The position numbers were made by a program, and so were the translations under genes. This document shows positions 3,202-54,719 of a stretch of 64,000 nucleotides of DNA, in pieces. The notes under the pieces are model-generated. The model saw only the letters and a list, made by a program, of their open reading frames with translations, did not search any database and was not told where the DNA came from. The DNA lies in contig CAVXTU010000001.1 in assembly GCA_963764785.1 (NCBI GenBank), forward strand, positions 478,015-542,014, given 5' to 3'. Origin of the DNA: an uncultured Chloroflexia bacterium (GTDB lineage: Bacteria > Chloroflexota > Limnocylindria > Limnocylindrales > CSP1-4). Each line of letters starts with the position of its first letter. Within the stretch, counting starts at the first letter, position 1.

Positions 3202-3279
3202 CCCTCGAGAGTCGGAAACGTCCAACACAAGGCCCGGGACTGGCCAAGGCCCGGGCAAGCAGGAGGATCTGATCCCGCC

Positions 3280-4332: not shown

Positions 4333-4374
4333 CGGACACCGTTCCCCGACCTTCCCGACTTCCCGCGGTCGTGA

Positions 4375-4408: not shown

Positions 4409-4442
4409 CGACCGTTCTCCAGACTCGTAGCGAGCGAACCGC

Positions 4443-5372: not shown

Positions 5373-5373
5373 C

Positions 5374-6324: not shown

Positions 6325-6365
6325 GACATGACGACGGTGCCGTACGGCAGTGGGACGGAAAGGCG

Positions 6366-7247: not shown

Positions 7248-7257
7248 GGAGCCGAAC

Positions 7258-8477: not shown

Positions 8478-8542
8478 CCGCCGCCGCGATGTCGCGCTGA
8501 TCGGGCGCGCAGCAGGGTATGCGACGTGCCACTCTAGGCGCC

Positions 8543-9025
8543 ATGTCCGTGCGCATCCATCTGTTGCGACATGCCCACGCCGGAGATGCCTTCGACTGGG
8601 TCGGTGACGACGACTTGCGGCCGCTCACCAAGAAGGGCCGGACCCAAAGCGAACGCCTCGGCGTGTTCCTCGAGACCCACAAGGTGCGACCGGATGTCAT
8701 CATCAGCAGTCCCAAGGTCCGTGCCCAACAGACCGCTGAGATCGTGGCGACCACGTTCGGCATGACGGTGAAGACCGATCAACGCCTGGGCGCTGATTTC
8801 GGCAAGAGTGAGCTTTGGGAGCTGCTCGATGAGCTGGGGGCTCGCGAGCCCATGTTCGTCGGCCACGACCCGGACTTCTCGGACCTGCTCGCCTATCTCA
8901 TCGATGCGGCCGGTATATCGATGAAGAAGGGTGCCCTGGCCACCATCGACCTGAACACCAAGCTCAGCGACGGGGACGGCGAACTGCGCTGGCTGCTGCC
9001 ACCCGACCTCTTGGGCGGCGACTGA
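8543..9025 (+). CDS. SixA-like phosphohistidine phosphatase (histidine phosphatase superfamily)
   Basis: IHLLRHAHAG...RPLTKKGRTQ...ISSPKVRAQQTAE...VGHDPDFSDL matches the SixA pattern. ATG 8543 is preferred over 8519. Confidence 0.75.
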   Translation: MSVRIHLLRHAHAGDAFDWVGDDDLRPLTKKGRTQSERLGVFLETHKVRPDVIISSPKVRAQQTAEIVATTFGMTVKTDQRLGADFGKSELWELLDELGAREPMFVGHDPDFSDLLAYLIDAAGISMKKGALATIDLNTKLSDGDGELRWLLPPDLLGGD

Positions 9026-9050
9026 CCGATCGTCGGTAGGCCACCACCGC

Positions 9051-10085: not shown

Positions 10086-10448
10086 GTCCCTAGGATAGGC
10101 TGGAGCTCACTCCGTGCTCTCGGTGGCGCGTAGGCGCCATGCGATCCACCAGACAGGAGCGCCCGCCGCGGGCGGCGCACCTGGCTGGCCAGGCGACGGG
10201 TCCGACGGGCCCGCACCCGGCGCAGGCTCGATGAGCCGCGCTCGAAACGCGCTCCGGGCGCCAGCCCGCGGGGAGTTGATGCGGGCGGCGCACGGAACGC
10301 GTGGGAAGCCAGGCGCCGGTACGCAGCTGCCCGGAGGGACGGGCGATGTGCGGGACCCTGGTGGAACGGGAGTCGATCACTGCGAGGAAGATGGAGGTTC
10401 CACGTCAACGCACCATCAACGCCATATCAACGTTGTGTTACTTGGGGC

Positions 10449-11168
10449 TCACTCGGTCGGCACTCGCAGCACGTAGCCGACGCCGCGGACGGTCTGCAGG
10501 TAGCGGGGTGTGCTGGGGTCAGCCTCGATGGCCGAGCGGAGCCAATGCACATGCACATCCACCGTGCGCGTCTCGCCGGCGTAGTCGTAGCCCCAGACCT
10601 TCTGGAGCAGCTGATCGCGGCTGAAGACGTGGCCTGGATTGCGCAGCAGGAATCCCAACAGCTCGAACGCCTTGGGCTTGACCGGCAGCTCTTCACCGTC
10701 GCGCAGAAGCCGGTGTCCGGCGACATCGACCGTTACCGCCCCCAGCTGCACTGACTGGGGGTCTCTCGACCTTTCGGCCGTCGCGCCACCGGCCGCCTCC
10801 ACGCTGTCGAGGCGACGCAGCTGCGCGCGGATACGCGCCATCAGCTCCCGCAGGCTGAAGGGCTTGGTCACGTAGTCGTCAGCACCCAACTCCAGGCCCA
10901 CGACCTTGTCGATCTCGCCATCCTTGGCCGTCAGCATCACGATGGGCACGGGTGATTCGCGACGCATGATGCGACAGACCTCGATGCCCGAGATCTGCGG
11001 CAGCATCAGGTCGAGCAGGACCAGGTCGGGCGAACCAGAGCGGAATTGCTCCAGCGCCTCCTTGCCATCGGCGGCCGTGATGACTCCGAGCCCGTCCTGC
11101 CGCAGGGCCTCCGCGAGCGTTTCGCGCAGCGTGGTCTCGTCATCGACGACGAGGATCGTCCGTGCCAC
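10449..11168 (-). CDS. OmpR/PhoB-family response regulator
   Basis: ILVVDDE...DLVLLDLMLP...MLTAK receiver domain plus a winged-helix C-terminus (VWGYDYAGETRTVDVHVHWLR). GTG 11168 lies 3 nt after the upstream gene's stop, so the 11231 start would overlap it. Confidence 0.88.
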   Translation of the reverse strand: MARTILVVDDETTLRETLAEALRQDGLGVITAADGKEALEQFRSGSPDLVLLDLMLPQISGIEVCRIMRRESPVPIVMLTAKDGEIDKVVGLELGADDYVTKPFSLRELMARIRAQLRRLDSVEAAGGATAERSRDPQSVQLGAVTVDVAGHRLLRDGEELPVKPKAFELLGFLLRNPGHVFSRDQLLQKVWGYDYAGETRTVDVHVHWLRSAIEADPSTPRYLQTVRGVGYVLRVPTE

Positions 11169-11170
11169 GC

Positions 11171-11552
11171 TCAATCCAGCCGGGCGACCGGCCCGGGCGC
11201 GCGCATCCACCATTCGCTGAACTCGGAGCAAGCACCACCGTCATCGAAACGGCAGACGAAGATGTTGCTGTATTCGTCGCGCACCAGGCCCGCCTCGTCG
11301 AAGTACTTGGTCGAGCCGATCGCGACATGCACCATCTCCTCGATGGCGAGCGGCTCGTACGCAGCTTCCCACGTGCCTTCCTCCTCGGCCAGCTCCTTCA
11401 GCCAGGCCTCGACGATCGCCTCGCGCCCGACGACCGAGGTATGGCCACCCCGAAAGCTGTAGGAGGCGTCCGTGCTGAAGAGCGCGCCGATGTGCCCTGC
11501 GTCCCGGCTGCGCCAGGCTTCGACATAGCGGCTCAGCCAGGCGGCGAACTGA

Positions 11553-39381: not shown

Positions 39382-39933
39382 ATGGACCCGTCAACCGTGG
39401 CTAGGGCACAGGGCGGCGATGAGGTGGCGTTCGCGCTGATCACCCGTGAGGTGAGCGCGCGCTTCAACCAGATCGCCTTCCGGATCCTGCGCGATCGACA
39501 CTTGGCCGAGGACGCGGTGCAACAGGCACTCGTGGAGATCTGGCGCAAGCTGCCCACGCTCAGGGACCCCGAACGCTTCGATGGCTGGGGCTACCGCTTA
39601 CTCGTCCATGCCTGCTATCGCGAAAGCAAGCGCTACCGGGACGCGTTCCGGGAGCTGCCCGGCGAACAGGTCATCAACCATCCCGATGTGACGCACGAGG
39701 TAAACGACCGGGACCAGCTGGAGCGGGGGTTTCGCCGTCTCTCAGTCGATCACCGTGCCGTCGTCGTCATGCACTACTACCTCGACTTTACGATCGAGGA
39801 CACCGCGGAGGCCCTTGGCATCTCCGCCGGCACGGCCAAGTCCCGGTTGAACCGGGCCATGGCGCAGTTACGCCTGGCGCTGCACAACGATATCGAGGCG
39901 CGAGCAAAGACTCGAAAGGAACACGTGGCATGA
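39382..39933 (+). CDS. ECF-subfamily RNA polymerase sigma factor
   Basis: Region 2 (AEDAVQQALVEIWRKL...FDGWGYRLLVHAC) and region 4 (EDTAEALGISAGTAKSRLNRAMAQLR). RBS GAGGAAG. Confidence 0.88.
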   Translation: MDPSTVARAQGGDEVAFALITREVSARFNQIAFRILRDRHLAEDAVQQALVEIWRKLPTLRDPERFDGWGYRLLVHACYRESKRYRDAFRELPGEQVINHPDVTHEVNDRDQLERGFRRLSVDHRAVVVMHYYLDFTIEDTAEALGISAGTAKSRLNRAMAQLRLALHNDIEARAKTRKEHVA

Positions 39934-41336
39934 AGTCCGACAAGCTCGACCATGCCCCGCTCGTCGAGGCCTGGCTCAAGGAACCGATCTGGTTGCCCGA
40001 GGTCGACACCGCTCGGACCGCGCAGCTGGTCCATCTGACGCCGCAGCAGCACCGCTGGCGGCGACCGTTCACCACAAGGAGATCATTCACCATGTTCAAT
40101 GCCACCAAGATCCTGGGCGCTGGCATCGTCCTCGCGGCGTTCGGCGGTTTCCTGTTCTCTGCGGGCCTGCTGACACCGCAGGACAGCGACAACCCACCGG
40201 CTGCCGCGACGGCATCATCGTCACCCAGCGCCGCACCGGTCGAAGCTTCACCGGAGGCGTCGCCACAGAGCGAGACCCCACCGACTGCAGGGCCTGTGGC
40301 CGCTGACGCGCTGGTCATGTCCGCAAGCAGCCAGCAGGGCGCGGCTGGCTGGACCGAGATCGGACGGGTCAGCGCGAATCCGGCGAAGAACACGCACTAC
40401 GCCGAGATGCGCCATCTCCAAGCCATGGGAGACCGGCTGGTCGCCATCGGCGCCTACCACAGCCCGGACACGGGCAAGGGCGATCACGATGCCATCTTCA
40501 CCTCTGCCGACGGGATCACCTGGGTCCCCGCGGCTGTGCCCGGTGACGAACCGACCATCTCGGACCTGGCCACCACGAGCGACGGGCTCATCGCGGCTGG
40601 CTCCGACACGGTCGACGGTGCGCGGGTCTCCCGGATTTGGTCCTCGGCTGATGGCGTGGACTGGACCGAGGTGGACGCGCCCGCGGAACTCAAGCGCGTC
40701 GACCAGATCGTTTCCGCCGAGGCGCCGCTGGTGGTCCGCGGCGGCCAGCAGCTCTGGACCAACGGCGATGGGGCATGGACGTTCGTGACCAAGCTCGTGA
40801 ATATGTCTATCGCCAAGGGCCCGGGCGGGTACCTGGCGTGGCAGTTCGCCGACGTGGCCACGATGCTTCACTCGACCGATCTCGCCGGCTGGAACGAGGT
40901 GGGCCTCCCCCGGAAGGTAAGCAAGGGCGGCGCCAATCTCCTGGTCGACACGCAAGTCTTTGCCCTCGACGACCAGTGGATCCTGCTGCCACACGTGGTC
41001 ACCAACCCGGACGCCATGTACACCAGCGTGGACGGCATCGAGTGGACCGAGGCCCCGCGTCCGCCTGGCATCATCGCGGGCGCGGTGCAGTGGATGGCCG
41101 ACATCGATGGACAGGTCCAGGCGTTCGGCGCAGTCGATGGGGACGACACCGACGCGGCAGGGATCTGGACCTTTACCCCGGGCGAGCCCGTGGCGGATCC
41201 CGAGATCATGGGCGATGCGGCTGACCTCATCGCGCCGCCGATCGCGTTCGGTGACGGCTACGCGGCGACCGGGCTGAACATGGGGAGCGGAAGCGAACTC
41301 ACCTCGTGGGAGCGGCCATCTGACGCGACCGAATAG
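39930..41336 (+). CDS. single-pass membrane protein with extracytoplasmic BNR/Asp-box beta-propeller-like domain (putative ECF partner/anti-sigma-like)
   Basis: ATGA overlap with the sigma gene. TM helix ILGAGIVLAAFGGFLFSAGLL. Five S-x-D-x-G-x-x-W-like boxes (SADGITW, SADGVDW, NGDGAWT, STDLAGW, SVDGIEW). Confidence 0.65.
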   Translation: MKSDKLDHAPLVEAWLKEPIWLPEVDTARTAQLVHLTPQQHRWRRPFTTRRSFTMFNATKILGAGIVLAAFGGFLFSAGLLTPQDSDNPPAAATASSSPSAAPVEASPEASPQSETPPTAGPVAADALVMSASSQQGAAGWTEIGRVSANPAKNTHYAEMRHLQAMGDRLVAIGAYHSPDTGKGDHDAIFTSADGITWVPAAVPGDEPTISDLATTSDGLIAAGSDTVDGARVSRIWSSADGVDWTEVDAPAELKRVDQIVSAEAPLVVRGGQQLWTNGDGAWTFVTKLVNMSIAKGPGGYLAWQFADVATMLHSTDLAGWNEVGLPRKVSKGGANLLVDTQVFALDDQWILLPHVVTNPDAMYTSVDGIEWTEAPRPPGIIAGAVQWMADIDGQVQAFGAVDGDDTDAAGIWTFTPGEPVADPEIMGDAADLIAPPIAFGDGYAATGLNMGSGSELTSWERPSDATE

Positions 41337-41351
41337 GTCGCGTCCGCCCAA

Positions 41352-41390
41352 AGCCACCAAGGCCACCGCCGGCCTTGGTGGCTCTTTCTC
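41352..41390 (+). terminator. Rho-independent terminator
   Basis: agccaccaaggcc accgcc ggccttggtggct followed by ctttctcatt. Confidence 0.7.
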
Positions 41391-41448
41391 ATTCCTGCGG
41401 GTACGGCAGCCCAGACAACGACCTCTGGCGCGGCCGGCTCTCCTGTCG

Positions 41449-41673
41449 TTGGTTGATCGTGCGTTGGTGCCGACCATGGACTTTGACCATCGAGATCCGT
41501 CGTCCAAGAACTACACCGTCAGCAGGATGATCGGCCGAGCGGGAGACGCACGGATCATGGCGGAAGTGGCCAAGTGCGATATCGTGTGTGCGAACTGCCA
41601 TCGCGATCGAACATATCGACGTCGGGGGCTCAGGTTCCTCCGGGCGGGAGTAGCTCAGTTGGTAGAGCGCTAG
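41449..41673 (+). pseudogene. HNH-endonuclease-like fragment running into the tRNA gene
   Basis: MDFDHRDPSSKNYTVSRM...EVAKCDIVCANCHRDRT has the HNH core but no upstream CxxC half. The ORF only ends 30 nt inside tRNA-Gly. Confidence 0.4.
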
Positions 41674-41719
41674 CCTTCCAAGCTGGATGTCGCGGGTTCG
41701 AATCCCGTCTCCCGCTCCA
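41644..41719 (+). tRNA. tRNA-Gly (anticodon UCC), CCA encoded
   Basis: Acceptor GCGGGAG/CTCCCGC, D-arm GCTC-AGTTGGTA-GAGC, anticodon stem CTAGC/GCTGG with loop CTTCCAA, T-arm GCGGG-TTCGAAT-CCCGT, discriminator T plus CCA. Confidence 0.92.
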
Positions 41720-41946
41720 ATCCCTCGTGTCACGCGCGTGGCAAGACGCTGGCTGTGTCGGGGCGAGAGGGGTGGCCCCAGCTTGACCCACCTTACGGTC
41801 AGGCCCTGGAAGCAAGCTCGGGAACGTCGCCTGGTCGATGCCGGCTGCGGACGGGCTCGGTATCAGTGGGGCGAGGCCGCGTCCCGCGATGGGTCGCGGA
41901 CGGTGTTGATGGACGGCACCAAGGTCCGTGGCGCAAGATACCCGAA

Positions 41947-44900
41947 GTGAGGGCCTCCTCGGTCGACGGCAGCACGGGTGGGATCGACTCGAGGTGGCCG
42001 TCGATCCGCGTGTTCGGGGGAATCGGGCTCCAGGATGCCGATGGCCCGGTCAGTATCGGAGGGCCGCGGCAACGACGCCTCCTCGGTCTGCTGGCGCTTC
42101 GAGCGGACAAGGTCCTCGACATCGACTGGCTCGCAGAGTACCTCTGGGACGACGAGGACCGGCCTGATCTAACGGAGCCTCTGCTACGGACGTACGTGTC
42201 GCGGCTGCGCGCGGCGTTCCCATCCCGCGCGCGCGAGTGGGTCGTCACCGAGTCGGAGGGATACCGGCTGGACGCACCGCCCGACGCTATCGAGCACCTC
42301 CGGTTCGGTCGGCTTCGGGCCAGCGCGACGCAGGCGCGCGAGCGGGGCGACCCGCAGACGGCGATGCATTTGCTCGACCAAGCGCTGGATCTCTGGCGCG
42401 GCGACCCCTTCCGCGAGATCGGGGACCTGGAACTGGCCGAATCCGAGATCGAACGGCTGCAGCTCGATCGACTCGACATGATGGAAGAACGCTGGGAGGC
42501 GGCCCTGGCACTCGGTCGGCACACCCAGATCACCGGGGAGCTGGCGGCGTTCGCCTCTGAGCACGGGGAACGGGACCGAGCAGTCCGGCAGTACGCTCTC
42601 GCGCTCCACCGCAGCGGTCAGACAACGGGGGCCCTGCGCGTCGTCCGCGAGCACCGTCGCGTCATGGTCGAGGAGTTCGGCCTCGACACCTCCGCTGAGA
42701 TCACTCATCTCGAACAGGCGCTGCTCGACGACGACCCGGCACTGCTGGTCGAGAGGGATGGCCGTCCGTTGCGCGGCTACCGCCTGGTAGAGGAGATCGG
42801 TATGGGCTCCTTCGCGGTCGTCTGGCGCGGGATCCAGCCGTCCGTCGGCCGCGAGGTCGCCATCAAGCAGATCCGGGCAGAGCTCGCCACCCAGCCTGGC
42901 TTCATCCGCCGCTTCGAGGCCGAGGCGCACCTCGTGGCTCGGCTCGAGCACCCCCACATCGTGCCGCTCATCGACTACTGGCGGGATCCCGACTCGGCCT
43001 ATCTGGTCATGCGCTGGCTGGTTGGAGGCACCCTCGAACGTCGACTTGACGATGGCCCGCTGGCTGTCGACACGGCGATGGCGCTCGCTCAGCACATCGG
43101 TGGCGCGCTCTCAGCGGCCCATTCGCGCGGCGTGATCCACCGCGACGTGAAGTCGGCCAACATCCTCTTCGACGAGGACGACAACGCCTACCTGACCGAC
43201 TTCGGCATCGCGATGGAGGGCACCGACCCCGGTGGTCCGGAGGCGGCGCTGTCGCCGGGCTCACCCGCTTACGCCTCCCCGGAGCAGCTCCGCCGCGAGG
43301 CGCTCGGGCCGGCCAGCGACGTGTTCAGCCTGGGCGTCGTGCTCTTCGAGAGCCTCAGCGGATCGCTTCCCTTCCCCGCTGACACGCCGCTCGATGTGCT
43401 GGTCGACAAGCAGCTGACCGAGCCGTACCCCGCGCTTGCCGATATCCGGCCCGACATCCCTGAAGCCGTATCGGCAGCCATCGCCAAGGCCACTGCCAAG
43501 GACGTTGCCAGCCGATTCGCGAGTGTCGATGCCTTCGTCGCCGCCCTGACGTCCGGTGATGTCGCCGCGGTCGCAGTGGACACACCGGCGACCCCGCATG
43601 TGGTCGACGCCGCGCTCGAGGACCTGCCCAACCCGTACCTCGGCCTGCTCGCGTTCGACGATGCCAGCGCGGACCACTTCTACGGCAGGGATCGACTCGT
43701 GGGCGAGCTGCTGGCGAGGCTGGATGGCAACGGCACGGCCTCGCGCTGCTTGGTGATCGTCGGTCCGTCCGGTTCAGGCAAGTCGTCGGTTGCCCGTGCG
43801 GGACTCCTGCCCAAGCTCCACGAGGGAGCGGTCGCTGGCTCCGCGGACTGGTTCCCGACGACGATGACACCCGGCGACGATCCATACGAGTCGCTCGAGG
43901 CCGCGCTGCTGCGGATCGCCGTCAACCCGCCCGCCACGCTCCTGGACCAGCTCCGCGACGGTCGCCGAGGCATCCTGCGCGGCATCCGGCGCTGCCTTCC
44001 CTCCGACGAAGATCGACTGCTGCTCCTCGTCGACCAGACGGAGGAGCTGTTCCTGGGCCGCTCTGCTGGAGATGCCGACGAGTTCCTGGACGCTCTCGCG
44101 GTGGCCGTCACGGATCCGACGTCGCCCTTGCGGCTGGCGATGACGCTGCGTGCCGACTACTACCAGTACCCGTTGGAGCACCCCACGTTCGCCCCAGTCC
44201 TTGACGCAGCGACCGTCAATGTCACGCCGCTCGCGGGCGACGAGCTCGAGCAGGCCATCGTGGAGCCGGCACGCAGCCTCGGCGTGAACTTCGGGCCCGG
44301 CCTTGTGGCGCGTATCGCTGCCGAGACGATGGGCCAACCTTCGCCGCTTCCGATGCTGCAGTACGCCCTTACGGAGCTCTTCGAGCGCCGACGGGTCCGC
44401 ACGATGACGGTCGACGCCTACGATGAGATCGGTGGGCTCGCCGGTGCGCTGGCGGCGCGGGCCGAGGCCATCTACGTCGAAGCGGAAGCCGACGAGCGAG
44501 CAGCGGTACGCCGCGTCTTCGGCGCCCTCGCAGACCCGGCCGAGGCTAGCGCCGATCTGCGACGGCGTGTCCGTCTGGCCGATCTTGGCGCCGACCCCGC
44601 GACCACGTGGGTGATCGACCACTTCGGTGCCGCACGCCTGCTCGTCTTCGACCACGATGCCGCCAGCCGCGACCCCACCGTGGAGATCACGCACGAGGCC
44701 CTGTTGCGCGAGTGGCCGCGCCTTGCTGCCTGGCTGGAGGCGGATCGCGAGGTCCTCAGGGCGACCGAGGAGCTGGCCGACGGCGCCAGTCGCTGGGATG
44801 CGGACGGACAGCGGGACGAGGACCTGCTTCGCGGGCTCCGACTTGAACAGGCCATCGAGCTGGCCGGGACCGATCCTCAACGTCTGCGGGAGCTCGACAG

Positions 44901-47209
44901 CGAGTACATCGCAGCGTCGCGTGTGGCCGCGGAGGTAGCGGATGCCGCCGAGCGCTCCCATCAGCGTCGGGTGCGAGTCCTGGGTGCGAGTGTCGCATTG
45001 GCGCTCGTCACCGCCGTCGTGCTGGGCGGACTCGCGCTGCTGCAGCAGACGAGGGCAGACGATGAGATGCGCGCGGCCGGGGCGGCGCAGGACCGCGCCG
45101 ACCTGGCGCTCCTGCAGAGGCGCGCGGCCGAGAGTGAGCCACGAGTCGGACTGCTGCTTGCCCTGGAGGCCCAGCGTCGCGACCCAGGCCCGGAGTCAGA
45201 CGACGTCCTGCTCGCCGCGCTCCGGCGTGCCGGAGGAGGGCGGCTCGTCGCCGCGTACCCGGCCCTGGCCTCCGGGCGCTGCGCCGCGGTAGCCGGCAGC
45301 GTCGTGTCACGTGACGGCTTGACGGAGTCCTCCACGGTCGACGGCATGCTCTCGACCCGGGACCTGGTCACAGGTCAGACGCGCCAGCGCGGGCCGATCC
45401 CGACAGACGGTTGCGTACGCTGGTTTGGCGACGAGACCACCGGTCGGCGGTACGCGTACGACCAGAACCGCAACCCCGGTCTCGACGGCGCCAGCCTCTG
45501 GCTCGGACGACTCGACGGGCCGTGGGAGGTGATGGTCAACCGGCCCTGGTCGAGCATCGTTTCGGGACCGCATGCGTTCGGTCCGACACGGCTGCTTCTC
45601 GAGGCTCCCGGCACGGTCTCCCTCGTCGACAGCGTGGCGGGTCGGCTGGTGGCCCCGCCGATCTTCGGACTGGCCGAAGAGCCTCGCGCCCAGCTCAGCC
45701 CAGACGAGGGACGCTTCGCGGTCGTGGCCAGCGACCCCCACACGGACGGGGAGATCGTCATCGTGCACGACGCACGCGACGGGAGCGAGCAGGTGCGGAC
45801 AGCCATCCCGTCGAGTGTCACCGCGCTGGCGTTCGACGACGACAGGGCGCAGCTGCTCCTCGCCGCGAGCGACGGTCATCTGCGCACGGTCGATCTCAGC
45901 GATGGTGCCGTCATCGCCGACGTCGCCGTCGACGGGATGCAGATCGAAGGGCCGGGCAGCATCGGCATCACTGCAGATGGTCTCGTCACCCTCATCTCGA
46001 GTGGTCCGGACGGTGGCGTCCAGGTCATCGACCGCGTCAGCGGCCAACCACGGGGCCCCATCCTCGAGCTCGCGGAGTCGATCGGTGGGCGGACACGGCC
46101 CGACGGCACCATCGTCACGTGGCGCTCTGATCACGAGCTCGCTGTCATCGATCCCCGATCCGATCCGCTCGTGGAGCAAACGGTGAGCCTTGCCATCGGC
46201 GACGCTCCACTCGGCGACAACGAGCAGATCGTCACCGTCAACGGGCAGCAGGCGACGATGCTGCTCCACCGATGAGGGCGGGCGACTCGCGGTCGTCGAC
46301 CTCTCCGAGGGTCAGGGCCGGTTCGTCTCCCTGCACACACCTGATGGCCGGCACTTCCCGGAGACCCGCGCGTACGCAGCAGGAGAAGGACTCGTGGCCG
46401 TCACCGACGACCAGCGAGTGGGCCTGTGGATCGACGATGTCGAGACCGACGAAGTCGTCATCGAGAGCGACCGGCGCGGTGGCCTCGTCGGGACGCGAAG
46501 CAACGACCCGTTCCTCATCGTGACTTTGGCCGACGGGCCGATGACGATCGAGGACGAGCACCTGCTGGACCTCAGCAACGACCGCATCGAGGAGCGGTTC
46601 GCGGTCACGGGAACGCCCACGGTGTGGATCTGGCCGATGTCCGATGGCGGGCTCTGGCGGGTCGGTCGAGATGGCTTGGCCGAGCGCTGGGATGCATCCG
46701 GCGAATTGCTCAAGGAGCAATCGTTTACCGTCCCCGACGCAGAGCGGATCAGCATCTTCGCCGCCGATGAGCACGGCCGCGTGGCCTACGTGCGAGCAGA
46801 CGCCCCCGGAGGCCTCAATCGTATCGAGGTTCGCGATCTCGAGCGCGGCGAGACGATCGAGCGGACCGCTCCCGGCCTCGTCAACTGGATGGGCTTCGCT
46901 CGAGATGGGGAGCTGCTCGCGCTGCAGATGGTCGATGGCAGTGTCCGGCTCATGGACGTCGAGAGCGGGGTGACCGGTGGCGTCCTCTGGGACGGCGATG
47001 GCACGCAGCTGCGGACGCCCTGGTACGACCAGGCAACCGATTCGATCTGGGTAGCCGCGCGCGAGCAGCTCGTTCGTCTTCCCATCGACCCGTCCGCGTG
47101 GCGTGAGCACGCCTGCGCCAGCGTGACCCGGGAGCTCACCGCGAGCGAGTGGGCCGAGCTGGTGCCCGGCGCCGAGGCGCAGGTCCCGGCCTGCCCAGCA
47201 GACGCATGA
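41947..47209 (+). CDS. giant multidomain protein: SARP (wHTH+BTAD) / Ser-Thr protein kinase / STAND P-loop NTPase / TM helix / beta-propeller repeats (apparent +1 frameshift at 46262-46272)
   Basis: IRVFGG...PRQRRLLGLLAL, LDLWRGDPF (BTAD). Kinase VAIKQIR, HRDVKSANILF, DFGIA, SPAYASPEQ (about 42778-43545). Walker A GPSGSGKSS (43762-43785). LLLLVDQTEELF. Helix VLGASVALALVTAVVLGGLALL (about 44978-45046). Blade-like repeats continue in ORF 46190..47209. The GTG 41947 start is tentative. Confidence 0.8.
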
Positions 47210-47258
47210 GGGGGACGACCGTGGATGGCGGTTACTTGGAGGGGATGGAGGTCAGGAG

Positions 47259-48362
47259 ATGACTCGACGAAAGACACACGAGCCGACGCGGAGAGCAACG
47301 ATGCGCTCGTTCGCCCTGGTGATCGCGACCGTCCTGGCGCTCGCGGTGGCAGGTACCGCGCCGATGGCGGCCGCCGAGGCGACTGACCCGATCGACCTCG
47401 AGGCCGAGCTCGGTGACATGGTCGGTCTCCAGTCCGGCGGGGCCGTGGCCCTGGCCGTGCATGACGGCGAGACGCGCAGTGCCGCTGTCGGCTACGCCGA
47501 CGCTGCGGGTGACCCGATGACCGTCGAGTCCGGGTTCCGGGTCGGCTGGTTCGACATGCAGTTCGTGGCTGCCTTGGTGCTTCAGCTCGTTGATGAAGGG
47601 CGGGTGGATCTCGACACACCACTCGCGACCTATCTGCCTGACGTTCCGCTCGGAGGTGACGCGACCATCCGGCAGCTGCTGACGCAGCAGGCGCGCCTGA
47701 GCAACGTCTTGCCGGAACTCATCAGCCGCTATTCGCAGGATCCGGCCCACCTGTGGACGATCGACGAGATCGTCGAGATCGCCGCCGAGGTAGCTCGTGA
47801 GGAAGGCACGCGCGTCGATCAGCTCGGGCCTACTGAGTACTTCCTGCTGACCGAACTGGTCGACGTCGTCGATGGGGGTATGTCCGACGCGTTCGACCGC
47901 CGCATCGTCGATCAGCTCAATCTGCAAGGGACGTCGTATCCGGGCAGTCGGATGCCCGAAGGGCTGGCCGCGGGTTGGCTCCTGGGTCTCGGCCTCGAGG
48001 GGCAGCCGGACATCGGAGGGCTGGACCGCATCAGCGGCTTCCGCACCACCGCCCCGGACCTGGCGCGGTTCCTCCAGGCATTGCTGGCCGGAGAGGTCGT
48101 CTCGAATGAGCTGCTCTCGGAGGTCTTCTCCGACGAGGTCGGTCCGATCACTCTCGGCGCCTTCTTCCTCCCTGACGCCATGGGCTACCCGGGCAGGCGA
48201 GTCTTCGGCACACGGGGCGGTGACTACTCCGGCTACAGCTTCGACATCGTCGTCGACCCCGAGACGGGCGATATCGCCGTCGTGCTCGCCAACAACGCCG
48301 ATATCGATACCCACCCCGTCGCCGCCTCCATCGTGGAGTCCTGGAGCACCGAAGGCGGCTGA
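47259..48362 (+). CDS. secreted beta-lactamase/serine-hydrolase-fold protein lacking catalytic motifs
   Basis: Signal peptide, then FRVGWFDMQFVAALVLQLVDEGRVDLDTPL, where SxxK is replaced by WFDM. Y-x-N position reads LGPTEYFLL and the H/KTG position reads GTRGGDYSG. Confidence 0.75.
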   Translation: MTRRKTHEPTRRATMRSFALVIATVLALAVAGTAPMAAAEATDPIDLEAELGDMVGLQSGGAVALAVHDGETRSAAVGYADAAGDPMTVESGFRVGWFDMQFVAALVLQLVDEGRVDLDTPLATYLPDVPLGGDATIRQLLTQQARLSNVLPELISRYSQDPAHLWTIDEIVEIAAEVAREEGTRVDQLGPTEYFLLTELVDVVDGGMSDAFDRRIVDQLNLQGTSYPGSRMPEGLAAGWLLGLGLEGQPDIGGLDRISGFRTTAPDLARFLQALLAGEVVSNELLSEVFSDEVGPITLGAFFLPDAMGYPGRRVFGTRGGDYSGYSFDIVVDPETGDIAVVLANNADIDTHPVAASIVESWSTEGG

Positions 48363-48467
48363 CGCTCGCTCGGATAGGTCCCTGCAAGGCGCTGCAAGCC
48401 GTTCGATAGGGCCAAGGAGGACGCTGCGGAGCGTCCAATCCCCCAACCCGAACGGAGGCACCAAGGA

Positions 48468-49182
48468 ATGCAGCACCAGGAACGACCGGAGCACGGCAAG
48501 GCATTCGCCAGGGCCATCACGACCACCACCATCGCACTCATGAGCATCGGCCTGCTCGCAGGCTCGGCCGTAGGGGTCGCGGCGCAAGACGAGGAGACGC
48601 GGCCGCCGGAGCTCCTGCCACAGTTGCGGGAAATCTTCATGTCGACGAGCCCGGAGCTGCCGGCGAGCGCTGCCGTCGACTACTCAGGGCGGGCGTTCGA
48701 TCTCGCCCCAGAGACGCCGATCTACTACACCTGGGAGAACGGAGAGTGGCCTGAAATCGGAGATGGTGCCAGGCACGTTCGACGAGGAGACCGGCGCTCT
48801 CACCGGTATGTCCGCCGGCTCGATCCCGGTGACAGCCAGTGACCCACGATTCAACTCCACCGCCTGGGTCACGGTCAACCTCCAGCAGCAGGAGGGTAAC
48901 GATGGCGTCGCGATCGTCGAGTCACGTTCGTTCCGTCTCATCGATGAGCTCGGATGCACCTGGACCGGAGAGAGCACGGCGGTAAGGTTCGGGATCCCGC
49001 CCGAGCCACCGGTGTACGACAGCGAGGCCGCCATGCTCACCGGGGATGGACCCTGCGAGGGACTCACCATGTGGACCACCGGCGACTACCTCGAGGATCC
49101 GTATGGCGAGGCGGTCATCTTCAGCGCTCCGGTCCCACCGGTGCCTGACGCACCCGACGCTGCGCTCGCGCTCGCTGACTAG
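48468..49182 (+). CDS. hypothetical secreted protein (apparent +1 frameshift near 48740-48765)
   Basis: Signal/TM segment ITTTTIALMSIGLLAGSAVGVAA. ORF 48468..48842 is continued by ORF 48763..49182. No recognised domain. Confidence 0.5.
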
Positions 49183-49334
49183 TGCGATAGCACCACCGAC
49201 GGCGGCGGCTGCCGAAACCCCGCTGGGGTCCGGGGGTCGCCGTCGTGTCTTTGGACCCGCGCTCGAGGTCGGGAGCTCCCGCGAGCACGAGCTCGTCCTC
49301 CTCGGCGCCGCGCGCTTCTGCTTGGGAGCACGGG

Positions 49335-49486
49335 AGACGATGGCTGGACGAGGTTCGCTCACGCCTCGAGCACGCTGCCATAACGGTACGCGGCCGCGGC
49401 CTTCCAAGCTGGATGTCGCGGGTTCGAATCCCGTCTGCCGCTCCACTCCCCTCTGTCACGCTCCTGGCGACACGATCGCTGTGTCA
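49335..49486 (+). repeat. att-like repeat R2: element arm + tRNA-Gly 3' half + downstream arm
   Basis: 49399-49445 equals tRNA positions 41673-41719 with 1 mismatch. The next 41 nt match 41720-41760 gaplessly at 29/41. The 65 nt upstream match the arm upstream of R3. Confidence 0.75.
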
Positions 49487-49927
49487 GTCGGCGAGCGCGT
49501 CCCGCTCCATCAGGTCCCTGAGGTTGTCGAGGTCGTTCTGGAACTGGCGCTTGGCGGCGGAGGTGAAGAGCGGCCCGACGAGCTTGAAGAACCCGCCGGG
49601 CTCCCCGTCGACGACCTGGACGACCCGCGTGCCGCCCGCCCCAGACTCGAACGTGAAGGTCATCGTCGCCGCGAACGGCCCCGTCATATCGAACGTGAGG
49701 TTGCGGTTCGGCTCGAACTCGGTGTAGGTGATGTCCATCTCGATGCGCCGGCCGAGGAACTTGCCGACGCTGTGCCAGGTCGTGCCGACACCGATGGGCC
49801 CGTCCGAGGTCTTGGTGGTCTCGTTCACCGATGAGATCCACTTCGCATCCTGCGAGGCGTCGCTGATGACGGCGAAGACCTCCTCCACCGGCCGCTCGAT
49901 CGTGGTGCTGACCTCTGCTCGGGCCAT
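49484..49927 (-). CDS. SRPBCC-family (polyketide cyclase/START-like) protein
   Basis: 147 aa: EVSTTIERPVEEVFAVISDASQDAKW...GVGTTWHSVGKFLGRRIEMDITYTEFEPNR, the typical SRPBCC ligand-binding fold pattern. Confidence 0.75.
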   Translation of the reverse strand: MARAEVSTTIERPVEEVFAVISDASQDAKWISSVNETTKTSDGPIGVGTTWHSVGKFLGRRIEMDITYTEFEPNRNLTFDMTGPFAATMTFTFESGAGGTRVVQVVDGEPGGFFKLVGPLFTSAAKRQFQNDLDNLRDLMERDALAD

Positions 49928-50069
49928 CTGGGGACCTCCGTCTTTGGGTGAGGCTCCCCCCTTGCTTCGCGATCAGGACGCGGAGTGTGCGCCGAAAGAG
50001 AAGGCACAGGAAGCCCCATGCTCGCCCTCCGGGCCGATCGGTGGGGAGACGGTCCTCATGCCCTGTACC

Positions 50070-50190
50070 AGACGATGACTGGACGAGATACGTTCTCGCC
50101 TCGAGCACCCTGCCACAGCGCTACGCGGACGCGGCCTTCCAAGCTGATGTCGAGGGTCCGGATCCCGTCTCCCGCTCAGATCAATCCTCG
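50070..50190 (+). repeat. att-like repeat R3: element arm + decayed tRNA-Gly 3' half
   Basis: 50134-50178 gccttccaagctgatgtcgagggtccggatcccgtctcccgctca is the tRNA 3' half with two 1-nt deletions and 3 substitutions. 50070-50133 parallels 49335-49398. Confidence 0.65.
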
Positions 50191-50191
50191 A

Positions 50192-51163
50192 TCAAGGCAA
50201 GGTTTCGAGCACCCTCGCGGTGTCATCGTCGCTCATGCCGATGGCGTAGGCAGTGTCACCCTGGACATACAAGAGGCCCCGGGACTCTCCATCCGACGAC
50301 AGCCTGGTCACCTGCTTGCCCCCGAGCGTCAGGTCCTCGGTCTCGACGCCCCCGGGGCCAGTGACGTTGCGGAACCATTCGACGATACCGGATCGGAGGC
50401 TGGATCCGTCCATGCCGACCACGCGAATCGCCGAGTAGTTTCCGAGACCCTCCCCTGATCCCGCGTCGGACCCGTTGACGCTGAGGATGAAGATGGCACC
50501 AAGGTCGGCACCCAGCGCGTCGGCCAGCGGCTGCCAGGCGGCGGCTTGCCCCTCATCGGCCTCGATGAGCTCCTGGGCGCTCAGCACCTCCTGGTTGCGA
50601 CCCCACTCGATGCCGTCCACGTCCGGCGGGGGCGCCAATGCCGCCTCGGCCACAGCACCATCCCCTGTTGACGTGGCGTCGATCGCGGGAAGCACCAGCT
50701 CAGCGACACCAGTCGCGAATGCGACGGGGTCGAGCCCGGGCACGGCATCGGGGTCGTCGAGTTCCAGGATGATGGACAGGATGCCGTCGTCAAGTCCGAC
50801 GTGCAGGTATCCATCGACCATGATGGCCGGGTGGTCGCCGATGTTGAACTCGACGATGTCGGGCGCTGCCTGCCGCATCAGGTCGAACGACATCCCGCTG
50901 GTCAGGATCGCCAGCGAGTAGGAGTCCGATGGTGATGACGCCTGGAAGCTGCACCACCCAGGAGCCCCGGAGGGATCGGGCGGGTCGAAACGGAGCGGGC
51001 TTAGCTCCTGGAGCGCGTCGACCGTGATGGCGTCACAGAAGGAACCGCCAGTGGAGGCTTCCGCGCCGAAGGCCATCGAGGCCGGGAGAGCCAGGGACAG
51101 GGCGAAGCCAAGTGACACAGCCAGGCTTCTCGCGCCGGTCATGGGCAGGGTTCGGAATGGCAT
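50192..51163 (-). CDS. hypothetical secreted protein
   Basis: Signal peptide MPFRTLPMTGARSLAVSLGFALSLALPASMAFGA. Acidic 323-aa ORF, last gene of the blaI-blaR1-like operon. Confidence 0.55.
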   Translation of the reverse strand: MPFRTLPMTGARSLAVSLGFALSLALPASMAFGAEASTGGSFCDAITVDALQELSPLRFDPPDPSGAPGWCSFQASSPSDSYSLAILTSGMSFDLMRQAAPDIVEFNIGDHPAIMVDGYLHVGLDDGILSIILELDDPDAVPGLDPVAFATGVAELVLPAIDATSTGDGAVAEAALAPPPDVDGIEWGRNQEVLSAQELIEADEGQAAAWQPLADALGADLGAIFILSVNGSDAGSGEGLGNYSAIRVVGMDGSSLRSGIVEWFRNVTGPGGVETEDLTLGGKQVTRLSSDGESRGLLYVQGDTAYAIGMSDDDTARVLETLP

Positions 51164-51290
51164 CGGGCGTCACCTCCAGCTCTCGTCGGCTACACATCGG
51201 TCAGCAGGTTCAGCCCACCATACCCGCGACGGGCAAGCGTGGCGCCCTAAGGCCTGGTCGCACCGAAGGCGACCGCCGGGCGTCAGTCCG

Positions 51291-52643
51291 CTACTGACGC
51301 GCCGTTCGGTCCACCTGCTCAAAGCGGATCACGGTCGGCACCGGGTCGCCATCATCGCGCTCGGCACGGCGCCTCGCCCTGGCCTGCCTGGCGCGAACCG
51401 CCGCCTTCCTGGCCCTGGCCTCACGTGCCTGGCGGGACTGCCGAGCCTTGGCCTGGCGGGGCTGCCCGGCCTTCGCGGCATTCGTGCCAGCGATCTTGCC
51501 GGACGTGGTGCTCACCCTTGCGCTCAGCATCGCCAGATCCTCTTCAGGATCCATGGTGACCGCTCCCGTCGGCTGAACAGCGGCGCGGCCCGTTCCCGCA
51601 AGGATCGTTCGTTCACTGTCACTCATGAGACCGGATGGCTGAGCCGCGCTCCGAGGGGCAGCCTGGTCCACGTCATTCGCGTAGCCCAGACCGACGGGCA
51701 ACAGGGGGACCACAGCAGCGACCAGGCCGATGGCCATCCAGCGAGGTGCTCGCCTGGCGCCCTGGCTGGCGATGATCAGTCGAAACCGCCGCTCGAGTGA
51801 CACGCCGCCGTCGATCCCGGTGGCCACCGCGGGTGGCTGGACGGCCGGGCGCGCGAGGTGTTCGACCACGGCGAGCAAGGCTCGTGCGTAGGACCGCGGA
51901 CGGGGCCCCAGGTGCTCGATGACCAAGGCATCACAGCTGGCCTCCTCGTCCAGGCGCAGGTTCTGTCGGGCCCACCAGGCCACCGGGTTCCACCAGAACG
52001 CGACGCAGGCGAGCCACTCCAGCCAGCGGACGAGGTGATCGCGACGCTTGACATGAGCAAGCTCGTGGCCAAGGACCCAGGCCAGCTGGTCACTCTGGAT
52101 GTCCTGCGCGAGCCCGCTTGGCAGGACGACCCGGACGCGGCCGCCGGTCCACCACGTCATCGGCGATAGGCGGGCCTCGGTGATGTAGACCAAGGGCACC
52201 GACTGGATCCCGAGGCGTCCTCCTGCGTCCTGGGCCATGAACTGGATCCATCCGGGCGCCTGCCGCGTGGTCCGCCACAGCAATCGATCGAATCGGTAGA
52301 TACGCAGCACCGACACCCCCAGGACGATGCCGCTGCCGATCCCCCAGATGATGAGCAGCCCGACCAGGGCGTCGTCGATGAGCGCACCCATCCCGAACGG
52401 GGCTTCGAGCAGCGTCCCGCCGCCGGCCGCGGCCGGCCCCCCCAGCAGCGCGCTCGTGGCGGGGATATGCGCCATGGGCAGTGACAGCACCGGTGGCGTG
52501 ATCAGCTTGACCAGTACCAGCACCCACAACAGGTGGGCCAGCACCGGATACTGCCCTCGGCGATGGACCGCGTAGGCGAACCCCGCGATGACCGCAGATG
52601 CCAGCAGATTGCTGAGCGCGACCTGGACCAGGAACGCCGTCAT
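51291..52643 (-). CDS. M56-family (BlaR1/MecR1-like) membrane metalloprotease lacking a penicillin-binding sensor domain
   Basis: VLGHELAHVKRRDHLVRWLEWLACVAFWWNPVAWW (HExxH plus WxNP). The C-terminus is a low-complexity Arg/Ala/Gln-rich tail. Confidence 0.8.
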   Translation of the reverse strand: MTAFLVQVALSNLLASAVIAGFAYAVHRRGQYPVLAHLLWVLVLVKLITPPVLSLPMAHIPATSALLGGPAAAGGGTLLEAPFGMGALIDDALVGLLIIWGIGSGIVLGVSVLRIYRFDRLLWRTTRQAPGWIQFMAQDAGGRLGIQSVPLVYITEARLSPMTWWTGGRVRVVLPSGLAQDIQSDQLAWVLGHELAHVKRRDHLVRWLEWLACVAFWWNPVAWWARQNLRLDEEASCDALVIEHLGPRPRSYARALLAVVEHLARPAVQPPAVATGIDGGVSLERRFRLIIASQGARRAPRWMAIGLVAAVVPLLPVGLGYANDVDQAAPRSAAQPSGLMSDSERTILAGTGRAAVQPTGAVTMDPEEDLAMLSARVSTTSGKIAGTNAAKAGQPRQAKARQSRQAREARARKAAVRARQARARRRAERDDGDPVPTVIRFEQVDRTARQ

Positions 52644-53035
52644 GCCTCGTCCAGTGGGGGCTCCGGTTCCTCATCGAGGATCTGGCGCAGCCGCTGTAGT
52701 TCAGCAGGTGAGAGACGGTTCTGCTCGATCAGGTGCGTGACGAGCGGAGCCAGCGACCCGTGGGTCAGGCGCTCGGCGAGCGACTCGAGCTGGCTGCTGG
52801 CGTAGTCCTCACGTCCCACGGCAGCCGAGAACAGGTGCACGGCGAGCCGGGTATCGCGGCGAACGTAGCCCTTCTCCTCAAGGCGTTGCAGCAATCGCTG
52901 GACGGTGCCGTGCTGCGCCTTCGGCGACTCCGGATAGAGCCGTTCGCGGATCTCGCGCGCCGTCAGTCGCTCCTCGTCCCAGAGCAGATCCATGATCGCG
53001 AGCTCGGCGTTGGCGAGAGGCGGTCGCGTCGGCAT
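52640..53035 (-). CDS. BlaI/MecI/CopY-family transcriptional repressor
   Basis: LANAELAIMDLLWDEERLTAREIRERL...HGTVQRLLQRLEEKGYVRR winged helix. Its stop overlaps the M56 gene start. Confidence 0.85.
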   Translation of the reverse strand: MPTRPPLANAELAIMDLLWDEERLTAREIRERLYPESPKAQHGTVQRLLQRLEEKGYVRRDTRLAVHLFSAAVGREDYASSQLESLAERLTHGSLAPLVTHLIEQNRLSPAELQRLRQILDEEPEPPLDEA

Positions 53036-53054
53036 CGGTCCTCGGCGGGCTAGT

Positions 53055-53091
53055 ACGACTGAACGTCGTTATTGTACGACAACTTGTCGTA
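53055..53091. promoter_or_regulatory. palindromic operator candidates in the blaI / RTX-like divergent region
   Basis: Perfect 8-1-8 inverted repeat tacgacaa-c-ttgtcgta (53075-53091), plus acgac-tgaac-gtcgt (53055-69) sharing the TACGAC half-site. Confidence 0.55.
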
Positions 53092-53177
53092 TGGTACGGT
53101 TCCGCCGGCAACGAGGAGCGCTACGGACGTTCATGCCGTGCCCCAGACCGGCGCTCCGGAAGCAGAAGGAAGGTGAC

Positions 53178-53930
53178 ATGCCCCAGTTTCGACACCTCGG
53201 TGCAGCGGCGGCGATGGTAGCAGTCTCGATGGTGGCTTTCTCGTCGGTGGCCGCGGCACATCCCGGCCACCGGTTCGACCACGTCTACATCGGCACCACC
53301 GGGCCGGACACGTTCACGGCCGCGCCCGGCGACCGCGATCTGATCATCGGCCGGGCTGGCGATGACGAGCTCGACGCCGGCGACAGGCATGATCGTGTCT
53401 ACGGCGGTCGCGGAGACGACCTCATCTATGGCGGGGGTGGGAGCGACCTGATCCTGGCCGGACCGGGCAACGACGGGGTGCGCGCCGGAGACGGCCGGGA
53501 CCGCGTCATGGCCGGTCGCGGTGACGACAGGATCGCCGGTGGCGCGGGCCCCAACCTACTGGTCGGTGGACCTGGTGACGATGTCATCTACGGTGGCGAC
53601 GACCATGACCGAGTCCTTGGTGGGCCCGGTCACGACACCATCGATGCTGGCGACGGACGCGACCTCGTGCGCGGTGGACGCGGCGGCGACAGCATCGGCG
53701 GCGGCGACGGGAATGACAAGGTCGCGGGTGGTCCCGGCAGCGACACGATGACGGGTGGTCCCGGCCACGACCTCCTGCTCGGGGGTCCTGGCGATGACAT
53801 CATCTACGCCGCCGATGGTGAGGCCGACCGAGTCGATTGTGGTCCCGGCGATGACGACTACACAGCGGACGACATCGACAGCGTGGCCGCCAACTGCGAG
53901 AACGACATCTCCACCGACATCGCTCCGTAG
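53178..53930 (+). CDS. secreted calcium-binding beta-roll protein with RTX-like GGxGxD nonapeptide repeats
   Basis: Signal peptide MPQFRHLGAAAAMVAVSMVAFSSVAAA. At least 15 consecutive 9-residue units (GGRGDDLIY GGGGSDLIL AGPGNDGVR ... GGPGDDIIY). RBS AAGGAAGG precedes ATG 53178. Confidence 0.8.
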   Translation: MPQFRHLGAAAAMVAVSMVAFSSVAAAHPGHRFDHVYIGTTGPDTFTAAPGDRDLIIGRAGDDELDAGDRHDRVYGGRGDDLIYGGGGSDLILAGPGNDGVRAGDGRDRVMAGRGDDRIAGGAGPNLLVGGPGDDVIYGGDDHDRVLGGPGHDTIDAGDGRDLVRGGRGGDSIGGGDGNDKVAGGPGSDTMTGGPGHDLLLGGPGDDIIYAADGEADRVDCGPGDDDYTADDIDSVAANCENDISTDIAP

Positions 53931-54017
53931 TCCCTCATCGGAGCAGATGCCTGCGAGAGCGCCGGGGCTCACTACCCGGCGCTCTCGCTTCGTGGATGGC
54001 TCCAGGTGTGACGACGA

Positions 54018-54719
54018 GTGCGGTACGGGTGCCAGAATGGCTGGGTGATACGCGGTTCGGTCCACGGTGGCGACGTCTTCGCGTTCGAGCAGGTCAGCGT
54101 GACCTTCGGAACGACCGTCGTCCTCGACCGGATCGACCTCCATATCCCGAGCAGCGGGATCACCGTCGTGAGCGGCCCGTCGGGTTCAGGCAAGTCCACG
54201 CTGACACGGCTTTGCAACCGGCTGCTCGACGCAAGCCAGGGGGTCGTGCGCCACCGAGGCCAGGACGTGATGGACCTCGACGTGCTGGCACTCCGCCGCC
54301 ACGTTGGTATGGTCTTCCAGCGACCGACACTCTTCGATGGCTCGGTTCGCCACAACCTGGCCGCCACCGGCGTGCAGGACCCCGACTCGCACGCTGCGGT
54401 ACTGGAGTCGGTGGGATTGGGGCCGGTGTTCCTTGAGCGCGCCGCGAACACGTTGTCTGGCGGCGAGTCACAGCGGGTCTGCCTGGCCCGAACCCTGCTC
54501 ATGCGGCCTGAGGCGTTGGTCGCCGATGAACCCACCGCGTCGCTCGACGAAGACTCGGCCCGGACGCTCGAAGAGCTCGCGCGAGGTCTGTCGCGTGATG
54601 GCGTTCCGATCCTGTGGGTCACCCACGACCCAGCCCAGGCGGATCGGATCGCTGACCACCGGGTGACCCTCGACCAGGGTCGAGTCAGCCGGAGCCACAT
54701 GGCGAGTGGTCCGGCGTGA
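54018..54719 (+). CDS. ABC transporter ATP-binding protein (FetA/YbbL-like)
   Basis: GPSGSGKSTL, LSGGESQRVCLAR, LVADEPTASLD. Start may be GTG 54045. Confidence 0.8.
   Translation: MRYGCQNGWVIRGSVHGGDVFAFEQVSVTFGTTVVLDRIDLHIPSSGITVVSGPSGSGKSTLTRLCNRLLDASQGVVRHRGQDVMDLDVLALRRHVGMVFQRPTLFDGSVRHNLAATGVQDPDSHAAVLESVGLGPVFLERAANTLSGGESQRVCLARTLLMRPEALVADEPTASLDEDSARTLEELARGLSRDGVPILWVTHDPAQADRIADHRVTLDQGRVSRSHMASGPA

Follow-up and report, generated by a model that had tools for sequence, protein, structure and literature searches.

The DNA analyzed here, a 64-kb window of contig CAVXTU010000001.1 from an uncultured Chloroflexia bacterium, contains a single tRNA gene according to ARAGORN, an intact tRNA-Gly(TCC). 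Two further copies of the 3' half of this gene lie downstream of it in the same orientation. The three copies, termed R1 (within the tRNA itself), R2 and R3, delimit two stretches of DNA: element A, 7.7 kb between R1 and R2, and element B, 0.73 kb between R2 and R3 (Table 1). Element A carries a giant STAND gene together with genes for a beta-lactamase-family protein and a secreted protein, and element B a single SRPBCC gene. We conclude that the region is probably a relic of two or more site-specific integrations, which took place one after the other in the 3' half of tRNA-Gly(TCC).

The original prediction, made from the bare letters of the window, had described R1 as the intact tRNA, R2 as its last 47 nt with one mismatch and R3 as a decayed copy; ARAGORN, Rfam and repeat searches agree on all three. 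R3 retains 29/34 matches over its last 34 nt plus a 1-nt deletion. Neither R2 nor R3 is itself called as a tRNA by ARAGORN or Rfam, and Rfam finds no RNA family besides tRNA-Gly at 41000–54500. Core spacings are 7726 nt (R1–R2) and 734–735 nt (R2–R3). An intact tRNA accompanied by direct-orientation 3' fragments (R2 and R3) is the boundary arrangement by which the Islander database recognizes tRNA islands. The 5' part of the tRNA, core R1 and the following P' arm together form the left attachment site (attL); the P arm, core R3 and the chromosomal flank form the right one (attR). R2, which has both arms, is an attP-like P-core-P' junction between A and B.

Table 1. Features of the tRNA-Gly(TCC) region, in window coordinates.
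Feature	Position	Strand	Evidence or remarks
Conserved ORF (open reading frame), 3' end only (~56 codons)	41476–41643	+	Translation; abuts tRNA-Gly
tRNA-Gly(TCC), intact	41644–41719	+	ARAGORN; Rfam tRNA, 73.9 bits
Core copy R1, 3' 47 nt of tRNA-Gly	41673–41719	+	Spans anticodon stem (5' strand) through CCA
P' arm of element A	41720–41762	+	31/45 identical to R2-downstream flank, 37/45 to contig L004
A cargo: 1506-aa ORF, Trans_reg_C + BTAD + Ser/Thr kinase + nSTAND1 NTPase	41755–46275	+	Pfam
A cargo: 339-aa ORF	46190–47209	+	Weak WD40/beta-propeller match (Pfam E=0.0046)
A cargo: secreted beta-lactamase-family protein	47259–48362	+	Pfam PF00144, E=4.9e-26
A cargo: secreted protein	48468–49182	+	Two overlapping ORFs (48468–48842, 48763–49182); translations
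P arm of element A	49335–49398	+	Repeat against R3 arm; nhmmer E=5e-31
Core copy R2, 3' 47 nt of the tRNA with 1 mismatch	49399–49445	+	Repeat search
P' arm of element B	49446–49485	+	Repeat and alignment against R1-downstream flank
B sole gene: 147-aa SRPBCC (Polyketide_cyc2) protein	49484–49927	-	Pfam E=4.5e-21
P arm of element B	50070–50133	+	Repeat, alignment, nhmmer, motif
Core copy R3, decayed	50134–50178	+	1-nt deletion, ~5 substitutions
Lineage-specific DNA after R3	50179–54011		3.8 kb without delimiting repeat; Pfam

The sequences flanking the cores are repeated as well. R1 with 40 nt downstream and R2 with its own 40 nt form an 87-nt repeat of 87% identity. Likewise, the 64 nt upstream of R2 and the 64 nt upstream of R3, each extended into the start of the core, form a 77-nt repeat of 87% identity. 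Both similarities had been noticed beforehand, with alignment statistics named as their test. Global alignment against mononucleotide-shuffled controls gave z=8.4 for the P' flanks of R1 and R2 (0/1000 shuffles as high) and z=13.8 for the P arms of R2 and R3 (0/2000), and the similarity therefore holds. The flank downstream of R3 is unlike either P' arm (z ~1 or less), as is expected for the chromosomal side.

Both types of arm recur on metagenomic contigs from relatives, designated here by L numbers. The P' arm of A aligns with those of L014 and L017 at z=4.6–4.8, and its P arm with those of L003 and L017 at z=4.2–4.7. A P' family comprising the flanks of window R1 and R2 and those in L004, L010, L012, L014 and L017 has 21–37 of 45 positions in common, compared with 10–18 of 45 for unrelated flanks. 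An nhmmer profile of the P arm plus core recovered full-length copies (E 1e-26 to 1e-33) at window R2 and R3 and in L003 (8978–9089), L001 (5153–5265) and L017 (319–431), and a decayed core in L001 (9156–9219). L017 has an uninterrupted series of P arm, core, P' arm and integrase-gene stump, an attP-like junction as at window R2. The proximal P-arm-plus-core pattern occurred in the species-representative genomes only on the contig of L003 itself and had no match in the JGI metagenomes; a more degenerate arm pattern and the integrase had no match in IMG/VR. The P arm was also considered as the 3' end of a decayed integrase gene, since some substitutions looked synonymous. This was rejected: the substitution positions lack periodicity, and six-frame Pfam searches of 48340–49500 and 49900–50200 were empty at E ≤ 5.

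An 11-nt motif within the arms, ACSATRRCTGG, is a candidate arm-type protein-binding site. It occurs twice in the window (49337 and 50072) against 0.19 copies expected, as ACGATGGCTGG at 49337–49347 in the P arm of A (−62 from the core) and as ACGATGACTGG at 50072–50082 in that of B, and it lies 61–63 nt before the core at every P-core junction. Degenerate forms with 3–4 mismatches in 11 positions are found at +27 on the P' side, namely ACGCTGGCTGT after R1 (41746–41756) and ACGATCGCTGT after R2 (49472–49482). The motif is also at +27 after the tRNA in L019 and L020. In L023, ACGATAACTGGACGAG stands just ahead of the integrase start; the window P arm has ACGATGGCTGGACGAG.

The gene content of both elements, as read from ORFs and Pfam matches, includes the genes originally proposed. 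The true start of the 1506-aa STAND ORF is probably further downstream than 41755. Matches to this protein in PADLOC, NCBIfam and PHROGs are at domain level only, and a defense-system call was discarded because the PADLOC matches stem from the kinase domain alone. The 339-aa ORF overlaps the STAND ORF by 86 nt in a different frame and is either its frameshifted continuation or a separate gene. In the beta-lactamase-family protein the position of the SxxK motif reads, as judged by eye, W..M (FRVGWFDMQF), and the protein may be catalytically dead. The two ORFs of the last secreted protein, which has no Pfam or PHROGs match, are probably one gene with a frameshift near 48770–48800. Gene decay or sequencing error, either of the two, accounts for the ORF overlaps here and at 41755–47209. 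The NCBIfam Rv0910-type match of the SRPBCC protein is far under its cutoff. Its gene is the only compositional outlier of the region, with a G+C content at third codon positions (GC3) of 0.95 and a synonymous-codon score of z=+3.0 relative to the other genes of the window, toward host-preferred codons. The codon usage of element A is indistinguishable from that of the other genes (z −0.9 to 0.05).

No recombinase gene was found in either element, again as first proposed. Pfam scans were negative for every called ORF of the region and for concatenates of most other called genes of the window, the remainder (e.g. pstSCA, phoU and several ABC transporters) being judged by eye and synteny only. 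Six-frame Pfam searches of the non-coding gaps were likewise negative at E ≤ 5. A tblastn search of the whole window with five integrases of the family described below, which is independent of gene calling, gave a best E of 0.13, outside the elements.

Comparison with relatives indicates that the tRNA marks a variable site. Homologues of the 468-aa protein, whose gene lies just upstream of the tRNA, led to contigs L001, L003 and L004. L004, a JGI contig, encodes a 93% identical version followed by the same tRNA and the same STAND gene, with 87% nucleotide identity to the window over the 300 nt after the tRNA. L001 and L003, from ENA/NCBI metagenome-assembled genomes (MAGs), are more distant (~65% protein identity) and share the gene order sigma factor, 468-aa gene, PAP2, ABC_tran, UPF0014, ZnuA, FUR, CSD; in the window PAP2 is replaced by 12.7 kb of DNA, the tRNA included. 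A search pattern joining the end of the conserved ORF to the start of the tRNA yielded eight more metagenome contigs, L006–L013. This ORF lies immediately upstream of tRNA-Gly(TCC), running into the tRNA gene, in every metagenomic relative retrieved; it is full-length in relatives and only its 3' end is left in the window, L003 and L004. It has no Pfam or NCBIfam match, and its motif (...DFDHRDP...KCDIVCANCHR.RT..) resembles HNH by eye. In L013 the ORF (8412–9374) carries the HNH-like motif twice.

The search for empty tRNA-Gly sites, advised in the original prediction, led to a near-empty one in L013 (22.6 kb). Upstream, this contig matches the window in carrying DUF1294, a periplasmic binding protein, a permease and ABC_tran; next come an AlkZ-like gene, the conserved ORF and tRNA-Gly, after which a single 220-aa ORF precedes ABC_tran/UPF0014. 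The distance from tRNA to ABC_tran is 0.77 kb, compared with 12.3 kb in the window, and no core repeat is present. Between L009 and L012, identity is 98.2% in the 450 nt up to and including the last base of the tRNA and then falls to 51%. The short site in L013 and the abrupt break between L009 and L012 show that the tRNA 3' end is a real insertion hotspot and that 41720–54011 is inserted or variable DNA. The island is thus absent from the site in relatives, as Islander demands of an island. Among the contigs retrieved, none lacks only A or only B, and the closest relative, L004, shares A.

Integrase-less modules are found in other genomes too. The one in L003 measures 1.37 kb and consists of the tRNA, a pair of small genes for membrane proteins, a fragment of a pseudogene and a P-arm-plus-core copy. 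L003 also has a 146-aa minus-strand gene directly after the tRNA, and R2 with the SRPBCC gene was accordingly considered as the ancestral tRNA context; the L003 gene encodes an unrelated membrane protein with no tblastx match, and this was rejected. L001 has a P-type cation ATPase and PPK2 between its two core copies, the first of which has a full P arm, with neither an integrase nor a tRNA within 10 kb.

A cognate integrase family was identified beside the same arms. In L012 a short ORF resembling the start of a tyrosine recombinase lies ~95 nt after the P' arm, and this ORF led to L014 and L017. The original prediction had advised a search for elements with the shared arm next to an integrase; the P' arm adjoins a tyrosine integrase gene or its remnant, starting ~100 nt after tRNA-Gly, in L014, L018 and L012/L017. 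In L014, a 61-aa ORF and a 202-aa PF00589 ORF come after tRNA-Gly(TCC) and the P' arm; they are two parts of one integrase that has suffered an internal deletion and acquired a stop. In L017 only a 57-aa stump is left, the deletions being visible against L014. The family has ~305 aa and combines PF13495 (SAM-like N-terminal) with PF00589 (Phage_integrase); its catalytic part as query gave 4396 matches at E ≤ 1e-20. The closest intact member, P0024 (308 aa, 87% identity), is encoded in L018, directly behind the conserved ORF, the tRNA-Gly gene and a P' arm, at the place that the STAND gene occupies in the window. Intact integrases also directly follow tRNA-Gly(TCC) in L019, L020 and L023. A decay series results, from intact genes (L018, L019, L020, L023) through an internal deletion plus stop (L014) and a 57-aa stump (L012, L017) to no integrase at all (window A and B, L003, L001).

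Five of the six family integrases examined in context adjoin tRNA-Gly(TCC). The sixth, in L022, is directly after tRNA-Lys(TTT) (9781–10933) and is 65% identical to a tRNA-Gly family member (P0051); the arm motif repeated in this contig is a different one, GACACTCTAA, present in both direct and inverted orientation. Members of the family appear to have switched targets. P0024 scores far under the cutoffs for XerC/XerD and integron integrases (40.6 bits vs 265 for TIGR02249; 25.6 vs 435 for NF011946). Its best annotated matches are actinophage tyrosine integrases (~35% identity over 87–89% of the length), and PHROGs assigns it to phrog_1, 'integrase'. Pfam lists for the 5–11 kb after the integrases of L014, L019, L020 and L023, which do not reach the far ends of the elements, contain no relaxase or type IV secretion genes; L018 has none of that flank.

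The proposed order tRNA-core-P'...P-core-P'...P-core-chromosome is supported by the homology of the arms, by the P arm preceding partial tRNA-Gly copies elsewhere, by the P' arm lying beside an integrase gene or remnant in relatives, by L013 and L009/L012, and by the lack of any integrase or trace of one in the searches of the window. A and B would both derive from one element family with a ~305-aa tyrosine integrase. Under the Campbell model, attP would be P-core-P' and attB the tRNA 3' half, so that integration would give tRNA-core-P'...P-core-B'. A second integration, of A or B, into one of the resulting cores would create the internal P-core-P' junction seen at R2. Each event would restore the tRNA from the core of the incoming element and push the earlier 3' half outward, with tRNA/R1-P'(A)...P(A)-R2-P'(B)...P(B)-R3-chromosome as the outcome. 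The integrase family found beside the same arms elsewhere presumably made the insertions in the window. Both elements would then have lost the integrase gene by deletion and kept their cargo only, the remnants now being inherited vertically as ordinary chromosome. R3 is the oldest non-functional copy, consistent with its decay; R2 stems from the second event and is nearly intact.

The original prediction had allowed A and B to be either immobilized remnants or elements mobilized in trans, and for element A the former is favored. Its left junction also occurs in L004, where the flanking protein is 93% identical, and element A uses codons as the host does, which together indicate that A is old and vertically inherited. 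The A junction is older than the divergence from the L004 organism.

Several observations weigh against a history of two integrations and subsequent decay. Base composition, GC skew and codon usage, proposed beforehand as a check, do not set A apart as foreign; A cannot be distinguished from the rest of the window and only the SRPBCC gene deviates. The flank of R2 starts CTCCCCTC, resembling the native flanks of L013, L009, L001 and L003, and part of the P' similarity may reflect a conserved native tRNA flank. Within the 10-kb flanks, no integrase-bearing element was recovered complete with its distal P-arm-plus-core end, and the link between P arm and integrase consequently runs through L017, which has a stump only, and the shared motif. 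The pair formed by the extracytoplasmic function (ECF) sigma factor and the 468-aa protein changes sides relative to the tRNA from genome to genome: it is upstream in the window (39382–41336) and L004, downstream of the terminal att repeat in L001/L003 (9453–11413), and absent from L013. This displacement, with orientation kept and order changed, is explained by neither simple inversion nor integration. The 3.8 kb after R3 is also variable DNA, without a repeat. Finally, the arms are still present on all five integrase-less modules seen (A and B of the window, one in L003 and at least one in L001), which random decay does not require.

Retention of the arms bears on the question of whether A, B or A+B could still be excised or moved by an integrase encoded elsewhere or incoming, as in the cis/trans mobilization of cis-mobilizable elements (CIMEs). 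Each module has its two arms and, in them, the motif at the expected offsets, R2 has just one mismatch, and L001 and L003 likewise contain modules that lack an integrase but have intact-looking arms; accretion and co-transfer of CIMEs with integrative and conjugative elements (ICEs) are documented elsewhere (PMC5704250). We nevertheless regard continued mobility as unlikely. The A junction is already present in L004 and the codon usage of A is host-like, R3 is decayed, the P' motifs are degenerate (3–4/11 mismatches), two cargo genes look frameshifted, and the 64 kb contain no integrase.

A more far-reaching alternative is that integrase-less modules, each a gene plus an ~150-bp attP, are inserted, excised and reshuffled at tRNA-Gly(TCC) by a small Xer-like integrase acting in trans, much as in an integron. 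If true, the locus would be a tRNA-based functional analogue of an integron and not a graveyard of decayed islands. Element B fits such a scheme, being exactly one gene with its promoter region between a 40-nt P' and a 64-nt P arm, 735 bp in all. The integrase is indeed small and Xer-like, and integrase-less modules of 0.7–7.7 kb are in tandem at the same tRNA in three genomes. Intact relatives, however, carry the integrase inside the element beside P', like an ordinary island, and L014 and L012/L017 preserve intermediates of integrase deletion. The modules differ from one another in size and content, the sample is very small, and the integrase scores 40.6 bits where the integron-integrase cutoff is 265. 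Taken together, this makes a capture system very improbable.

If the tRNA gene or a single attR had been duplicated locally, the common 5' end point of R2 and R3 and their similar upstream sequence would be accounted for. That upstream sequence is not the tRNA 5' half but an arm, found also by partial tRNA-Gly copies in unrelated contigs; a P'-type flank follows R2 and none follows R3; and the divergence is uneven for a single event (R2 core 2% from R1, P arms 16%, R3 core ~13%). We consider this origin highly improbable and reject it. Chance similarity, for which only the high G+C content of the window (~67%) could be invoked, has a negligible probability, since 0 of 100–2000 shuffles reach the observed matches.

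Beyond the two integrated elements, the 3.8 kb after R3 encode a 323-aa secreted protein, a BlaR1-like M56 peptidase and a BlaI-like repressor, all on the minus strand, and an RTX-repeat protein on the plus strand. These genes are absent between the tRNA or the 468-aa gene and ABC_tran/UPF0014 in L013, L001 and L003. A matrix scan and nhmmer found no fourth core copy bounding this DNA, which is either an older island or ordinary variable DNA. As it is also lineage-specific, variable DNA extends beyond the two delimited elements. At the other end of the window, positions 1–11300 hold a phosphate cluster unrelated to the tRNA-Gly islands, with a polyphosphate kinase C-terminus, CYTH-CHAD, pstS/pstC/pstA-like and phoU-like genes, a low-molecular-weight phosphatase-like gene, and a histidine kinase with a response regulator.

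Integration at tRNA genes is an ordinary and well-known route of bacterial gene gain, and our understanding of it is unchanged by this locus. The array is a clean and fully delimited case, in which metagenomic relatives allow the boundaries, the arm motif and the cognate integrase family to be recovered. For an uncultured lineage, it documents a group of ~305-aa tyrosine integrases located mostly (5/6 examined) after tRNA-Gly(TCC), with an approximate attP layout of motif at ~−62, 47-nt core and motif at ~+27, and makes the decay of the integrase visible from intact gene to stump to nothing. This could make variable regions of such MAGs easier to annotate, and it provides an integrase/att pair as a candidate for use in genetic tools.

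Among known systems, the integrases of Mycobacterium phages Eureka, Goku, Phaux and HufflyPuff and Streptomyces phage Kromp are distant relatives, ~35% identical to P0024. Unlike those phages, neither the window elements nor the islands examined in relatives carry phage structural genes. A and B do not qualify as prophage remnants, their PHROGs matches being at domain level only (kinase, STAND, beta-lactamase fold), with no structural, replication or lysis genes. Integrons comprise attC hairpins, a tyrosine recombinase and cassette arrays, including the integrase-less clusters of attC sites lacking integron-integrases (CALINs). Like such arrays, the locus has tandem integrase-less modules, one of them with a single gene, each ending in a homologous recombination site beside a fixed attachment point. 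It differs in that the recombination sites are tRNA-derived cores with arms and not attC, the integrase belongs inside the elements, and modules reach 7.7 kb with several genes. An assignment to integrons fails on both counts, the integrase falling far under the IntI cutoffs and the repeats being tRNA 3' halves with arms.

The Islander database lists 125 tandem arrays of two or more islands among 3919 islands, requires an integrase in each island, and includes a class of tRNA islands with attP centered on the anticodon loop (PMC4383910). Islands of the kind found by Islander and TIGER are matched here in the intact tRNA, in the displaced direct 3' fragments starting in the anticodon stem-loop, and in an integrase family with a fixed tRNA target. 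The difference is that neither A nor B carries an integrase; 41720–50178 consequently lies outside the Islander definition, and island finders that require one would not report the array.

The closest parallel is provided by CIMEs and their tandem accretion at att sites, described for elements related to ICESt1/ICESt3 in Streptococcus thermophilus (PMC5704250). As in CIMEs, integration and transfer genes are gone from A and B by Pfam, six-frame, tblastn and PHROGs searches, and attL and attR are retained at the sequence level, with motif-bearing arms flanking both elements. As in CIME accretion, the tandem would result from integration into the att site belonging to an element already resident, leaving an internal P-core-P' junction. 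No conjugation or mobilization genes are seen in the family members examined, and in contrast to the CIMEs described, the target is tRNA-Gly and the host lineage is uncultured. From their sequences, A and B are best described as CIME-like remnants of tandem site-specific integration; strict membership among CIMEs would need an ancestry in ICEs or integrative mobilizable elements (IMEs). To these known systems the locus adds a cognate integrase family, an arm motif, a near-empty site and a series of integrase decay in an uncultured lineage.

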